Shown here: positions 3,588-15,427 of the stretch, in pieces
Position numbering within the stretch: position 1 is the stretch's first letter
Layout of the letters: every line of letters begins with the position of its first letter
Source: a bacterium
GTDB taxonomy: Bacteria > Patescibacteriota > Microgenomatia > Levybacterales > UBA12049
Length of the DNA: 64,000 nucleotides
Reading direction: 5' to 3'
Assembly (NCBI GenBank): GCA_021813145.1
Contig: JAKALS010000002.1
Location: 149,862 to 213,861, forward strand
The notes under the pieces: generated by a model
What the model was told of the DNA's origin: nothing
Databases searched by the model: none
Seen by the model: only the letters and a program-made list of their open reading frames with translations
Translations under genes and position numbers: made by a program

Positions 3588-4018
3588 AATTTATTTTTAC
3601 AATATAAGTATTAGCTTAGATTTAGCTTAATACTTGAATAATCTAACTAATGCAATTTTACCATTTCCTCTTCCTATAGTCTAATTGCGGAACGAGGCTT
3701 AATAAATTATAAAAACGGTTTTAAAAGGCAAAACCTAACTTAAGAAGCCTACAACCTAAACTTCCCTCTTATTTTTATCCTGCCTGCTAGGACAAATGCC
3801 AAAGCTAATCTTGGACAAAATTCGTGCGTAAATTCCATTTTATATTTCCTCTCTTTTCTATATAAATATATTATATAGAGGAAGGACGAATAAGCGAACA
3901 GAAAATAAGTCTTATGTTATAATTCCAGAAAATATCCTTAAATTAACCTGCCTCCATAAAACAACAAACTGCCGTTAAACTTTCTGCCTTTTAAAATTTC
4001 CAAGTATCAGTAATTAAG

Positions 4019-4876
4019 ATGTATTACAAAAACTTACCGGAGGTGACAAAGAAACAAGAAGAAATAATAAACTTTATCTTTAAGTTCAGGTTCGCGAATA
4101 GAATTCAGGTCCAAAAAGAGCTTAATCATAAAGATGCAAGACGAATTAATGCCTGGCTTAAGGACCTTGTTGACAAGAAATACCTGGGCAGGATTTACTC
4201 CCATAAGCTTTTGGAAAATACCAAACCTGCAATTTATTACCTCGAGAACAACGGAATAATTTATGTAAAAAGAGAAAAGGGGTTCCAATACAAAAGCCCC
4301 AACGATGAGTTAGAAACAAAACAAGTAAAAAAATTCTACGATGACAAAAAAGCTTCAAAAACTTTTATTGAACACTGCATTTGTGTTTGTAATGTCTATC
4401 TTGAAATAAAAAAAATTGAAAAAAATAGAAAGAATATTTCATATGATTTTCTGACAAAAACAGAAATATGGATACAAAAACAAATGGAGGAAAATTTTTG
4501 GGAAAGAAAAGTTTACATTCCCGATCTTTACATTGAAGCTGTTCAGCAAACAAAAATAAAAATTCAAATAGACCCTTTTTTTCTTGAAGTATTTGACCCT
4601 CAAGTCCCAAGATATGCAATAAGATATAAGATTAAAAAATACATACAATTTATCGAAGAAGAAATTTGGAAAAATGATTCTCTCATTGAGGATGATACCC
4701 CCTACTTTCTTCTGGTTATTTCGGATCAGAGGAAGCTCAGAAGTATTAAAAAATTTATCGAGAAAGAACTTGCTTACAGTCCTAGGGAAAATATTTTTTT
4801 TGCGCTTACTACAATTGATAAAGCAATAACTATTTCAACGGTAAAAAACCCTTGGGAAGAAATCAATAATGATTAA
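4019..4876 (+). CDS. replication-relaxation family (Replic_Relax-like) protein; plasmid/ICE-associated
   Basis: 285 aa. The N-terminal 'EEIINFIFKFRFANRIQVQKEL...ARRINAWLKDLVDKKYLGRI....KPAIYYLENNG' matches the winged-helix pattern of the replication-relaxation family as I remember it. One of only three plus-strand genes; sits in an AT-rich block flanked by a 430-bp AT-rich intergenic region. Confidence 0.5.
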   Translation: MYYKNLPEVTKKQEEIINFIFKFRFANRIQVQKELNHKDARRINAWLKDLVDKKYLGRIYSHKLLENTKPAIYYLENNGIIYVKREKGFQYKSPNDELETKQVKKFYDDKKASKTFIEHCICVCNVYLEIKKIEKNRKNISYDFLTKTEIWIQKQMEENFWERKVYIPDLYIEAVQQTKIKIQIDPFFLEVFDPQVPRYAIRYKIKKYIQFIEEEIWKNDSLIEDDTPYFLLVISDQRKLRSIKKFIEKELAYSPRENIFFALTTIDKAITISTVKNPWEEINND

Positions 4877-4908
4877 GGTAATTTAAATAATTTGACAATC
4901 AGTAAATT

Positions 4909-5964
4909 CTAGGAAAGAAGGCTTTTAAATTTTGTGCTTAAGAAAAAATATTTTTTTGAAAGATAACTGCCAAAAATTTTTTGTAAAAATTTATCATAAG
5001 TTAGAAGATTTCCTGGTTTTTTTCTATATTCTATTGCCGCTTGAAAAGTACCTATAACCAAAAAGAAATAAGTCCACATCGAAGAATTCTCTGCAATAAG
5101 ATTTAAATTAAAAATTAACAAGAAGGGAACAAGAATTAAAAAGGCTAATGCCAATAAAAATGAAACAGAACTTTCCAAACGGTAAAAAATAACAAGAAAA
5201 ATCCACAAAATTATTAAAGTTAATTCAACATCCCTGTTAATCTGTTGCATAAAAAATACAAAGGTTAATACTCCTAATAAAAATACTTCCACTAATATAT
5301 AATTTTGCGAAACTAGTAAGCTTTTTCTGAAAAATAACCAAACTAAATATAAAATTAATGGCAAAAGATAAATACTTGAAGAAACAGCAAAATTAATATC
5401 TGAAAAAGAATAAAAGATTTTTTTGATCAAAAATATAGGAATCCTTGTTTTGTTAGCCAATAGTTCGGACTTAGTAAACTGAAATTCTGTTACAAATGTA
5501 GGACTTAAAGAGCTTAATGCTATTGCATTACCAGGCTTTCCCTTTTGAGACTGAATTTCAAAAGTATAGTTTTTATTTTTAGAATTAGTTATTATCGGGA
5601 ACCCAAACGTAAAAAGTTCATTCGGTTGAAACTGATCAACCTTATAGGAATGTACATAATACCAATTTTTAGATGGGTTTTCCTTTATTCTAAATGTAAC
5701 AATATCCTGACTGATATTATCAAAATTAAAAAATCTTACCCCTACAATACCTAAATTATTTTCTTTCGACTTAAAGCTGCCAATAATTTTTTGCCCTTTT
5801 AAAAGTTCATTTGTATTAAAATTTTTTATATTAGATTGACCATAACCGTTTACAAAAACACTCAAGCTATAATTTGAGGCAAAAAATAAAGACATAAAAA
5901 GCCAAAACCCAACTAACAATAGAGGAATTAAAAACAAAGAAGTAGTCTTCTTTAAGCTATTCAT
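4909..5964 (-). CDS. membrane protein, unknown function (N-terminal TM, ~170-aa extracytoplasmic domain, C-terminal multi-TM)
   Basis: 351 aa, hydrophobic segments at N- and C-terminus; no recognisable catalytic motif. Confidence 0.5.
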   Translation of the reverse strand: MNSLKKTTSLFLIPLLLVGFWLFMSLFFASNYSLSVFVNGYGQSNIKNFNTNELLKGQKIIGSFKSKENNLGIVGVRFFNFDNISQDIVTFRIKENPSKNWYYVHSYKVDQFQPNELFTFGFPIITNSKNKNYTFEIQSQKGKPGNAIALSSLSPTFVTEFQFTKSELLANKTRIPIFLIKKIFYSFSDINFAVSSSIYLLPLILYLVWLFFRKSLLVSQNYILVEVFLLGVLTFVFFMQQINRDVELTLIILWIFLVIFYRLESSVSFLLALAFLILVPFLLIFNLNLIAENSSMWTYFFLVIGTFQAAIEYRKKPGNLLTYDKFLQKIFGSYLSKKYFFLSTKFKSLLS

Positions 5965-5982
5965 TTTTATTTATTATATCAG

Positions 5983-13605: not shown

Positions 13606-13719
13606 AAAAAAAACTTTTTATACATTTAAATATCCTATCATAACTATGAAATTTCTAATTGAATATTTCTAAACAAAATAAAATTTACTATTGATTTAAT
13701 TTTCCAACAAAAAGAATAA

Positions 13720-14532
13720 TTATGGTTTAATAATAATTTTATTTTTATTTTGATTTAGCCAGGCACCCCACCAACTGAATGTGCTATTTGCTATTATATT
13801 ATGCTTACATTTGCTCATAAGCCACATGTCTTTATATGCATCTTTACCCTTATTATAATCAATAAAATATACCCTATTTTTAAGATCTTTAAAATTTTCC
13901 CTACACCATTCAATATCATCTGAAAATATAAAATAACTTGGATTCTGAACTAATCTATCAATTTTTTTAATGGCTTCTTTATAATAATTAATACCAATAA
14001 ATTTTAGTACCCTATCTTTATTAGTAATATAATCTCCCCTCCTTACGTGGACACTTACTGATTTATTTGTTTGTATTTTTTTAAGGATTTCATTATTTTT
14101 TCTATCTAATTTTTTTCTGGGAGTGAATTCTTCTATTAATACACTCTCTATTCCATTGAAATATCTTTCGTCTGCCCAAAAACCTTGTATGTATGAGCTA
14201 TCTTTAATAGATAAATAGTTTATATCAAAGTTATATGGATATCTCTGAGTTAAGATATTTCTGTTAACCTGAAACTTAAAACGTTCATCTAAAAGATATA
14301 AAACTCTATTGATTATCCTATTACTAAAAACGCCTAATCTATGAAGATCTTCTTTTGTTGCCAAATTTGCAGAAATATTAAAAACATCTAATTCAAAAGA
14401 TCTTTGGGTATTTAGCAATGCATTTGTATAATGAATTTTCAGACTTGTCTTACACTCCAAAGCGATTTTCTTACCAAATGCATATTGAAACATCTGATTG
14501 CCCAAGCCGCCTGTCAAATTAACAATAATCAT
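13720..14532 (-). CDS. alpha-1,2-fucosyltransferase (glycosyltransferase family 11)
   Basis: 270 aa; 'GGLGNQMFQYAF', 'HVRRGDY' and 'IANSTFSWWGAWL' correspond to the three conserved GT11 motifs (H. pylori FutC: GGLGNQMFQYAF / HIRRGDY / IANSTYSWWAAYL). Confidence 0.88.
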   Translation of the reverse strand: MIIVNLTGGLGNQMFQYAFGKKIALECKTSLKIHYTNALLNTQRSFELDVFNISANLATKEDLHRLGVFSNRIINRVLYLLDERFKFQVNRNILTQRYPYNFDINYLSIKDSSYIQGFWADERYFNGIESVLIEEFTPRKKLDRKNNEILKKIQTNKSVSVHVRRGDYITNKDRVLKFIGINYYKEAIKKIDRLVQNPSYFIFSDDIEWCRENFKDLKNRVYFIDYNKGKDAYKDMWLMSKCKHNIIANSTFSWWGAWLNQNKNKIIIKP

Positions 14533-14587
14533 ATAAATTCTAATCCCAACTAATTTGATACTAAAAGATTATAAAATATTTATTATC

Positions 14588-15427
14588 TTAAAATGTATTT
14601 CTAATTTTTATAAATATAGCTATTGCAAAGCGTGGGGGTAAAATATATATAGAAATTATTTGCAGATAATTAATTATTACATCCAAAAATGTTCTTTTAT
14701 ATGCTTTGTTTTTTGCAAATTTATTTCTTATTTCAATAGTTGAAAAAAACTGATGTCTCAATTTTTTAAAAGTAGCGGACTCCTGTAAAATCCTATAACG
14801 TATAACCGGTTTTTGAATATTGGCAAATTTCCACTTACTGCCTATTCTAAAAGACATATCTATATCTTCAGCTGGAGGATACTTTAAGTTATATATCCCG
14901 ACTTCATTAAAACACTGCTTTCTAATCATTGCTGCAGGTTGAGCAACAGGTGAATAACGAAAAATAAGTCTTCTTAAATCTGAATCGTTCTCTTTATATC
15001 TTCGTACGCTGGTCACACGTTTATTTTGATAGAACTCTAAAAAACCACCCACTATGCCAACTTCGGGATGATTTTCTAAGTAAATAACTTGTTTTTCCAA
15101 TCTATCCCGTAAGGAGATATCATCTGCATCTTGCCAGGCAATATATTTTCCTCTTGCCAACTTTAATAATTTATTTCTACTTGCAGCTATATATAAATTT
15201 TTATTATTATGGTATGCTTTTATTCTTTTATCTTTTTTTTCAAATTTTTTTATTATTTGCCAAGTATTATCAGTACTAGCATCATCTAAAATGATAAATT
15301 CAAAATTTTTATAAGTCTGTTTTAATATACTATTAATGGCTGTACTTATATAATATTCAGCATTATATGCTGGCATGAGGACTGAAACTTGAGGATGACT
15401 AAATTTTAATTTTGTTCTTGATACCAT
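14588..15427 (-). CDS. GT2-family glycosyltransferase
   Basis: 279 aa; '[14 protein letters not shown]...[14 protein letters not shown]...WQDADD'. Confidence 0.8.

Follow-up and report, generated by a model that had tools for sequence, protein, structure and literature searches.

An AT-rich glycan cassette at a hypervariable site of a Levybacterial glycosylation locus, probably placed there by allelic replacement

We analyzed a 64,000-nucleotide stretch of a Levybacterial contig (GenBank JAKALS010000002.1, positions 149,862 to 213,861), hereafter the window, and concentrated on an AT-rich block of nine minus-strand genes at 4909..15427. With a probability of roughly 0.6, this block is one allele, foreign in composition, of a modular surface-glycan cassette; it would have taken the place of an earlier cassette by recombination at a hypervariable site upstream of a conserved operon. 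An earlier, sequence-only reading of the window had described a likely acquired glycan-diversification cassette, headed by a mobile-element-like Replic_Relax gene and added onto a resident pathway.

Results

The block is a compositional outlier

The genes of the block are, in the order of transcription:

14588..15427, minus strand: GT2-279, a family 2 glycosyltransferase (GT2), the upstream-most gene of the cassette (Pfam Glycos_transf_2, 130.1 bits; GC content at third codon positions (GC3) 0.186)
13720..14532, minus strand: GT11-family, putative alpha-1,2-fucosyltransferase (Pfam Glyco_transf_11, PF01531, 118.9 bits against a cut-off of 23.9)
12829..13605, minus strand: DUF268/Methyltransf_11 methyltransferase (Pfam DUF268 47.1 bits, Methyltransf_11 23.5 bits)
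11773..12828, minus strand: CgeB-like glycosyltransferase (Pfam Glyco_trans_1_2, 88.4 bits)
11172..11771, minus strand: MT199, a 199-aa S-adenosylmethionine (SAM)-dependent methyltransferase (Pfam Methyltransf_11, 38.7 bits)
8787..11075, minus strand: 762-aa membrane protein, a distant paralogue of the 753-aa GT-C protein according to hhalign
8264..8785, minus strand: hexapeptide-repeat acyltransferase, putative sugar O-acetyltransferase (Pfam Hexapep, 61.1 bits)
5983..8244, minus strand: 753-aa membrane glycosyltransferase of predicted GT-C fold (AlphaFold2 (AF2) and Foldseek)
4909..5964, minus strand: 351-aa membrane protein with an N-terminal transmembrane helix, an extracytoplasmic domain and C-terminal transmembrane helices

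The GC content per kb was 0.24-0.32 at 4-15 kb and 0.33-0.44 elsewhere in the window. The GC3 of the nine genes was 0.175-0.26, compared with a typical 0.31-0.43 elsewhere. As had been noticed by eye, the encoded proteins are rich in Asn, Lys, Tyr and Ile; together with Phe, these residues made up a fraction of 0.35-0.46. The GC content at four-fold degenerate sites (GC4) was shifted too, with pooled values of 0.208 in the block (n = 1033) and 0.347 in the rest of the window (n = 6814; Mann-Whitney p = 8e-6). Therefore, the low GC is not an effect of amino-acid composition or of transmembrane segments, and we rejected such a bias as its cause. In addition, the tetranucleotide z-scores of the block correlated with the host reference at 0.18-0.36 (0.43-0.71 elsewhere), and its dinucleotide delta* x1000 was 88-97 (31-67 elsewhere). 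The AT-richness claimed for about 3.6 to 15.4 kb was thus borne out for the nine genes by these measures, and the GC/GC3 and tetranucleotide checks proposed at that time set the block apart both at synonymous sites and in its oligonucleotide signature. The flanks had been put at 40-48% GC, which is too high; we found about 33-41%, with 41.3% for the gene at 353..904 and 37-41% for the genes at 27248..30690.

Weaker patches of low GC3 and GC4 (GC4 0.22-0.29) were seen at 30674-35605, 24308-25672, 47834-48544 and 19727-20926. In tetranucleotide signature, the segments at 20-35 kb and 47.5-52.5 kb, which include most of these patches, resemble the host. The patches may represent acquisitions that are older and have ameliorated, or genes of weak expression.

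On its right, the block adjoins the following gene:

15406..16341, minus strand: Fcl-like GDP-L-fucose synthase, the boundary gene (NCBIfam GDPFucSynFcl)

The stop of this gene overlaps the start of GT2-279 by 22 nt. It had been regarded as a gene of native GC. Its composition is instead intermediate (GC3 about 0.27 over the full length, GC4 0.30), and the next gene, at 16399..17139, has a GC3 of 0.43. The compositional right edge therefore lies between 15427 and 16341. Its placement at 15427 depends solely on composition and on the comparison with one related locus, L098, described below.

The left edge is a synteny break

We compared the window with fetched loci, each labelled L and a number, whose flanks were limited to 10 kb. 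The gene on the left of the break is:

2649..3587, minus strand: GT2-312, a 312-aa polyprenyl-phosphate-sugar-synthase-like glycosyltransferase with C-terminal transmembrane segments (Pfam Glycos_transf_2, 115.7 bits)

GT2-312 is 71-86% identical to proteins named Levybacteria, and its homologues carry the names Candidatus Levybacteria/Levyibacteriota or 'Patescibacteria group'. Orthologues were present in 84 fetched loci, and the downstream GT4N, GT4 and Hexapep genes were kept in 46-50. The whole left operon (GT2-312, GT4N-190, GT4-379, Hexapep-183 and genes past the window edge) keeps its order in 46-84 Levybacteria/Microgenomates loci at 52-81% identity. The genes to the right of 3588, both the AT-rich ones and those of native GC up to 57 kb, had no orthologue within 10 kb upstream of the operon in about 80 relatives. 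Given the conserved operon on one side and the missing orthologues on the other, synteny truly breaks at 3588, and what lies to the right varies from one species to the next; the left limit proposed for the block is real in this sense. The DNA upstream of GT2-312 showed no meaningful conservation when compared with that of the relatives.

The occupants of the site differ among relatives. In L005, L007, L097 and L102, we found other methyltransferases, a Hexapep protein, a carbamoyltransferase, one SGNH/AlgX-like and one Acyl_transf_3 protein and GT-C-like large membrane proteins. In L005 and L010, whose core genes are the closest (81% and 77% identity), the 753-aa family is absent at the site.

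Since the contig is metagenome-assembled and two independent short contigs (L003 and L004) stop at 3359, inside GT2-312, a chimeric join of the DNA of two organisms by assembly or binning was weighed as an explanation of the block. This is most improbable. The same junctions occur at 100% identity in four independent assemblies, which include a 219-kb metagenomic contig on which the window was also found (ena:ERZ27237538:k141_642433) and a 20-kb Logan contig; these cover both edges or the left edge. Furthermore, the fcl gene and GT2-279 overlap, strand and operon are continuous over the edges, and relatives are alike in architecture. On the evidence of the four identical assemblies, we rejected a chimeric assembly.

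The ends of the L003 and L004 contigs lie 229 nt into GT2-312. This break at 3359 may reflect branching of the assembly graph where co-occurring Levybacteria share near-identical core sequence.

Some side observations concern the operon itself. The stand-alone gene for a 190-aa GT4 N-domain (2059-2631) overlaps the start of the full-length GT4 gene (923-2062) by 4 nt; about 50 relatives have kept the two side by side, so a frameshift artefact can be dismissed. Genes of a selfish or defence type were seen at junctions of the conserved operon: a bAvd/23S-rRNA-IVP-like gene in L005 (10979-11335), a Fic gene in L007 (11542-12519), and AbiEii, NYN and helix-turn-helix (HTH) genes in L102 (17791-18468, 19522-20136 and 20833-21141). 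An EamA transporter gene lies at such a junction in L097 (15090-15965). These findings point to the operon junctions as a hot spot for hitchhiking genes.

Related cassettes recur at the same site

The closest known cassette is that of L092. It encodes a CgeB-like glycosyltransferase, MT199, a 767-aa protein, Hexapep, a 756-aa protein and a 349-aa protein in the same six-gene order, at 55-78% amino-acid identity. It is AT-rich too (GC4 0.13-0.22), and the overall GC goes up to 0.35 in the next gene. The window allele itself was recovered from one strain, at 100% identity in four samples.

In L093, the order is GT11, a methyltransferase, a CgeB-like glycosyltransferase and a methyltransferase, continuing to proteins of 755 aa and 363 aa (45-79% identity). 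The GT11 protein of the window shares 69% identity with the partial GT11 that closes this locus, and MT199 is 77-79% identical to the L092 and L093 copies. The neighbors of the L093 cassette share 64-74% identity with the genes that immediately precede GT2-312 in the Levybacteria genome from which L020 comes, so that by inference from these sequences the cassette family would hold the same position there. In L097, L095 and L102, homologues of the 753-aa and 351-aa proteins (39-51% identity) are found upstream of the conserved operon, whose GT2-312 orthologue is 60%, 64% and 75% identical, respectively.

An extremely AT-rich block with a GC of 0.17-0.23 and a GC4 of about 0.1 is flanked by genes with a GC4 of about 0.3 in L098 (1853-9129) and L099 (63-6569). 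It opens, as the window block does, with a GT2-279 homologue (49% identical), followed by a GT4, a GT2 and two tandem GT-C proteins of the 753-aa family. The cassette family thus provides another compositional island with sharp edges. The composition of the cassettes is host-like in L093, L096 and L097 and strongly AT-shifted in the window, L092, L098 and part of L102.

The cassette family is thus a long-standing tenant of this site in Levybacteria, with modules shuffled between genomes. The CgeB-like glycosyltransferase of the window is 66% identical to that of L092, 61% to that of L093, which has an L020-like host (core GT2 66%), and 47% to that of L102, where the core GT2 is 75% identical; these identities suggest phylogenetic incongruence. 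The comparison with relatives that had been proposed as a check therefore showed a block that is not syntenic in all relatives and related cassettes of patchy distribution. Because members of this cassette family precede the conserved operon in L095, L097 and L102 too, without a Replic_Relax gene, the block is better explained by allelic replacement than as an addition to a resident pathway. Of the original proposal, the foreign composition, the variable site and the enzymes that build and decorate glycans stand, and the insertion onto a resident pathway is not supported.

The same comparisons bear on whether any transfer is needed. The cassette could have been inherited vertically and owe its AT-richness to a local regime of weak codon selection, low expression or a lack of GC-biased repair or recombination in rarely shared accessory genes. 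This accords with the presence of the family at the same position in several Levybacteria, with the GC of the cassettes in L095, L097 and L102, which roughly follows host GC at a negative offset, and with the low GC3 kept in the window and L092 despite deep protein divergence. Moreover, variable regions are slightly but systematically lower in GC3. In the 44 relatives whose flanks were complete, the variable side, taken as 10 kb upstream of the GT2-312 orthologue, had a mean GC3 0.017 below that of the conserved operon (maximum 0.084, p = 1.6e-4). In the window, however, the corresponding drop is 0.165, twice that of the most extreme of the 44 relatives; the block is a compositional outlier even among regions of such a variable kind. 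The tetranucleotide and dinucleotide signatures of the block also differ, whereas the segments that span most of the other low-GC3 patches are host-like in tetranucleotides. In addition, its boundaries are sharp, the 753-aa family is lacking at the site in L005 and L010, and the CgeB-like identities are incongruent. We therefore consider inheritance without transfer unlikely.

Gene content of the cassette

Every Pfam assignment named in the sequence-only reading was reproduced. The GT11 translation contains HVRRGDY, an instance of the HxRRGDY nucleotide-sugar motif; the protein qualifies as a GT11 member, and its role as a fucosyltransferase is putative. The Hexapep protein is 36% identical to the core copy at 353..904 and 78% identical to the L092 cassette copy. 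PDB sequence searches with GT11, the CgeB-like glycosyltransferase, the 351-aa protein and the profile of the 753-aa family gave no match. The three membrane proteins of 351, 753 and 762 aa had no Pfam match at the standard scan, and NCBIfam likewise gave none for the 351-aa protein.

The two giant membrane proteins that had been noticed in the block are present and could be further identified as predicted GT-C-fold proteins, one from a structural model and the other by profile comparison. The AF2 model of the 753-aa protein (pLDDT 87.6, pTM 0.86) was compared with the PDB by Foldseek, and the 11 best matches were all GT-C enzymes: AftD (2.4e-6), followed by AglB, ArnT, Pmt4 and PglB, with TM-scores that were modest (0.3-0.44). 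The residues D31 and D63, in an N-terminal loop region, are invariant in 22 sequences of the family. The 753-aa protein had 22 word-index homologues, and 363 representatives at E<=1e-3 were found among 1.84 billion cluster representatives. Judged by the predicted fold, this is a rare GT-C family without a Pfam model. An IMG/VR search with the family found no relatives.

The families of the 753-aa and 762-aa proteins aligned in hhalign over 550 columns, with a probability of 99.2% and E = 2.6e-19. In a permissive Pfam/NCBIfam search, the 762-aa protein gave only a weak match to GT-C_AftD (E = 0.043). It is 60.5% identical to the L092 copy, and distant homologues (21-28% identity) were found at the same site in more than 30 loci.

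A homologue of the 351-aa protein (39-55% identity) lies directly after the GT-C gene in L092, L093, L095 (two copies), L096, L097 and L102, so that, with the window included, the pairing was seen in seven loci. Between the soluble domain of the 351-aa protein and the N-terminal portion of an Acyl_transf_3 protein from L007, the identity is 32%. As a by-product, this rare, unannotated and predicted GT-C family with its obligate 351-aa partner offers a lead for annotating glycosylation in the Candidate Phyla Radiation (CPR).

The Replic_Relax gene is separate from the block

Between GT2-312 and the cassette lie a 430-bp gap and a gene on the opposite strand:

4019..4876, plus strand: Replic_Relax gene (PF13814), 285 aa (Pfam, 40.5 bits against a cut-off of 25.3)
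3780..4018, plus strand: Replic_Relax cis-region, with a CTAGGACA box, a palindrome, an extended -10 element and three CTGCC repeats

The AF2 model of the Replic_Relax protein (pLDDT 90.7) has an N-terminal winged helix with MecI/MarR matches and a C-terminal alpha/beta domain with weak matches (AF2093, HinP1I). The predicted structure agrees with the HTH plus PD-(D/E)XK architecture that has been assigned to the family (PMC3424549). The family has about 50% identity and lengths of 280-315 aa, its named members are all Patescibacteria, and the window protein keeps the family-invariant residues. No relatives were found in plasmid, phage and IMG/VR collections.

The AT-rich block had been thought to begin with this gene. 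With a host-like GC4 of 0.338 against 0.208 for the block, the gene lies outside the block in composition. Its stop is 32 bp from the block, and the two are convergent.

The near-palindromic AT tract reported in the 430-bp gap is real: the palindrome TTCC..TCTATA..TATAGA..GGAA lies at about 3846-3886. It is followed by the extended -10 element TGnTATAAT (about 3905-3914) and by CTGCC at 3948, 3969 and 3984; four CTGYC were observed in the cis-region and 0.26 expected. One motif after another, the region can be aligned with what lies upstream of the homologues in L089, L090 (7740-8000) and L101 (1043-1303), and the motifs shared across homologues are the CTAGGACA box, the palindrome, TGnTATAAT and 3-4 CTGYC repeats at a spacing of 15-21 nt. 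From its motifs, the cis-region looks like an autoregulated promoter/operator or an iteron/oriT-like region. Because it is conserved among the homologues, the Replic_Relax gene brought its regulatory region along. Scans for promoters and terminators over 3400-5100 gave counts no higher than those of shuffled controls.

Of 378 Replic_Relax homologues, we examined the contexts of six. In three of them (L089, L091 and L100), a large serine recombinase gene and an open reading frame (ORF) of about 105-112 aa lie directly upstream. In L090, a tyrosine integrase gene stands beside the homologue, and in L101 an upstream HTH gene is followed by an incompletely called 238-aa ORF. In the recurrent Patescibacterial module, a large serine recombinase (507-547 aa) is followed by an ORF of 103-112 aa and, after a gap of about 300-400 bp, by Replic_Relax. 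Its copies are located at:

L089, 5802-8882: recombinase/Replic_Relax module
L091, 5761-8906: recombinase/Replic_Relax module
L100, 5706-8891: recombinase/Replic_Relax module
L090, 6758-8942: Replic_Relax module with a tyrosine integrase

The module may represent an undescribed family of CPR integrative elements. The cargo that follows Replic_Relax homologues is often compositionally atypical, such as a DEAD helicase with a GC of 0.56 in L089 and sulfur-metabolism genes with a GC4 of about 0.2 in L100. In L091, the complete element adjoins, at L091 1-5635, orthologues (56-66%) of window genes 51783-57673 (YfhO, PMT_2, a 392-aa protein and GT2).

These contexts raise the question whether the cassette was itself the cargo of a Replic_Relax-type integrative (plasmid-like) element, or integrative and mobilizable element (IME), that inserted beside the GT2-312 operon and whose recombinase subsequently disappeared. 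In streptococci, the IMEs of S. suis included, PF13814 serves to mark IME relaxases (PMC12479173), and the gene order invites the comparison. A complete element reads host gene, recombinase (minus), small ORF (minus), cis-region of about 300-400 bp, Replic_Relax (plus) and cargo; the window reads GT2-312 (minus), 430-bp gap, Replic_Relax (plus) and AT-rich genes (minus), and these begin 32 bp past the Replic_Relax stop. Directly after Replic_Relax, L089 and L100 have their atypical cargo, and the L091 element neighbors orthologues of window genes 51783..57673. Against this, Replic_Relax is absent from all eight other cassette-bearing loci (L092, L093, L095-L099 and L102), of which L095, L097 and L102 hold the cassette at the same site without the element. 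None of the six contexts contains glycan cargo, and the gene differs from the cassette in GC4. A tblastn search of the window, the 430-bp gap included, with the L089, L090 and L091 recombinases gave chance matches only, and no recombinase appeared in Pfam scans of the genes at 1-35.6 kb and 54-64 kb. The search for direct repeats near 3.6 and 15.4 kb that had been suggested found none flanking the block; direct or inverted matches at its bounds were short, imperfect, AT-rich and of low complexity.

We consider it improbable, therefore, that the cassette came as the cargo of such an element, and the vehicle role that the earlier reading implied for Replic_Relax is not supported. The more general proposal, that Patescibacterial integrative plasmid-like elements (recombinase, ORF of about 105 aa, cis-region with the CTAGGACA box, Replic_Relax) deliver foreign cargo including glycan cassettes and that the window holds an immobilized copy with a 10.5-kb cargo, is equally doubtful. 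The window Replic_Relax gene, a solitary copy, is probably a relic of a Patescibacterial integrative element or a hitchhiker from one. As a further by-product, the conserved cis-regulatory module of Replic_Relax, tied to recombinases in Patescibacteria, provides a lead for annotating CPR mobile elements.

The surrounding glycosylation locus

From about 0.3 to 57.7 kb, nearly all genes of the window are on the minus strand and have glycosylation functions, so that this Levybacterium has at least 55 kb of contiguous DNA given over to glycosylation. The super-locus includes several polyprenyl-phosphate-sugar-synthase-like GT2s, GT4s, two Wzx-like flippases, GalE and an Fcl-like short-chain dehydrogenase/reductase (SDR). 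A large paralogous expansion of extracytoplasmic glycosylation genes occupies 22687-57673; within 35.6-50.3 kb, genes were classed by paralogy only. Its main families are:

36590, 40205 and 51783: three YfhO proteins
22687, 48537 and 50276: three PTPS-related GT-C proteins
22687-57673: five DPM-synthase-like GT2s
Window super-locus: at least six PMT_2 proteins

The sequence-only reading had inferred a fucosylation module. Its GT11 and Fcl-like genes are there. The Fcl-like protein scored best with GDPFucSynFcl (291 bits, under the cut-off of 500), and the next family reached 102 bits. The gene at 20905..21867 encodes GalE (NCBIfam, 396 bits against a cut-off of 262), and its Pfam match to GDP_Man_Dehyd is misleading. 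A tblastn search with E. coli Gmd as the query matched only GalE and Fcl in the window and nothing in L001; a Gmd gene was seen neither in these 64 kb nor in the 6 kb on their left. The GDP-fucose pathway is thus locally incomplete, and Gmd may lie elsewhere in the genome.

The only other plus-strand gene at the edge of the glycan locus lies at 57761-58981. It encodes a 406-aa protein without a family match and with a duplicated motif NWPIEDPxDGRGF at its N-terminus. The only Rfam match in the whole window was a tRNA-Glu at 62838.

Discussion

The donor of the block, the mechanism of replacement, the glycan chemistry and the biological role are what we infer as follows. From the gene content, the GT2, the GT11, the CgeB-like glycosyltransferase, the two SAM methyltransferases and the Hexapep acetyltransferase would build and decorate a lipid-linked oligosaccharide in the cytoplasm, which would probably be fucosylated, O-methylated and O-acetylated. 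The two predicted GT-C enzymes and the 351-aa partner may transfer or polymerize sugar units on the outer face of the membrane, with precursors supplied and exported by the Fcl-like gene product, a Wzx-like flippase and GalE. The allele most likely came from a Patescibacterial lineage of lower GC and would have ousted an earlier cassette, as in O-antigen or capsule switching. Replic_Relax and its cis-region of about 240 bp would be a separate, recombinase-less module lodged at the junction of the cassette and the core operon.

Several findings weigh against replacement by a foreign allele. Among the loci compared, there was no close sibling strain with another cassette, nor an identical cassette in a divergent background, so the replacement is a deduction from the variable site. 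Orthologues of 15406..22662 occurred in no fetched locus within the 10-kb flanks. The cassettes of the window and L092 have diverged by 22-45% in protein and both have a GC3 of about 0.2. The low GC has thus persisted for long; a bias intrinsic to the cassette, or repeated stays in hosts of low GC, would account for this as well as a recent transfer. Finally, Replic_Relax abuts the cassette in a convergent arrangement at a distance of 32 bp, as it does the cargo of complete elements, so that a link between the two is conceivable.

CPR/Patescibacteria live as episymbionts and have tiny genomes; attachment to hosts and recognition by phages probably depend on their surface glycans. One segment of the locus described here behaves like the serotype-switching cassettes of cultivated bacteria. 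Neither the cassette, the predicted GT-C family nor the Replic_Relax module overturns existing views.

We compared the system with those already known. The 753-aa protein resembles the GT-C enzymes AftD, ArnT, PglB/AglB and PMT in its predicted fold, in the acidic residues conserved near the N-terminus and in a large extracytoplasmic C-terminal domain; the 762-aa protein resembles them by profile comparison. It differs in that the 753-aa protein has no sequence-level match to Pfam, NCBIfam or PDB families, its C-terminal domain is followed by a terminal transmembrane helix, and its gene is always followed by that of the 351-aa membrane protein.

E. coli and H. pylori have O-antigen clusters in which GT11 alpha-1,2-fucosyltransferases go together with a GDP-fucose supply by Gmd and Fcl. 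The window shares with them a GT11 with HxRRGDY and an Fcl-like SDR two genes upstream of it, with the GT2 at 14588..15427 between. Unlike these clusters, the window and the 6 kb to its left have no Gmd, and the Fcl-like protein is below the NCBIfam equivalog cut-off.

Integrase-borne islands and the PF13814 IMEs of S. suis (PMC12479173) also have features in common with the window, namely an atypical composition, an adjacent PF13814 gene and homologues beside recombinases. In contrast to them, the window has no recombinase, coupling protein, attachment (att) repeats or tRNA target, and its PF13814 gene differs from the block in composition and is absent with the other cassette copies.

The closest analogue is found in the replacement flexible genomic islands ('glycotype') and in O-antigen/capsule locus switching, as described by Lopez-Perez, Rodriguez-Valera and colleagues (PMC4033161, PMC4898812), and in the O-chain clusters of Pelagibacterales (PMC11898729). 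As in those islands, the site is fixed next to conserved genes (here on the left flank), and relatives differ in their genes while keeping the same class (glycosyltransferases, methyl-, acetyl- and carbamoyltransferases and membrane proteins like polymerases or transferases). Integrase and att sites are lacking, the GC is atypical and lower, and the proposed function is that of a surface glycan. The differences are that the host is a member of the CPR/Patescibacteria and that the super-locus, of more than 55 kb, is dominated by GT-C proteins (PMT_2, YfhO, PTPS-related and the 753-aa family) rather than by the classic Wzy/WaaL; moreover, the likeness is drawn here from gene content and synteny rather than from strain-level exchange. 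By this analogy, the block is best read as a replacement flexible genomic island, a case of the familiar swapping of cassettes that would extend this model to a CPR lineage.

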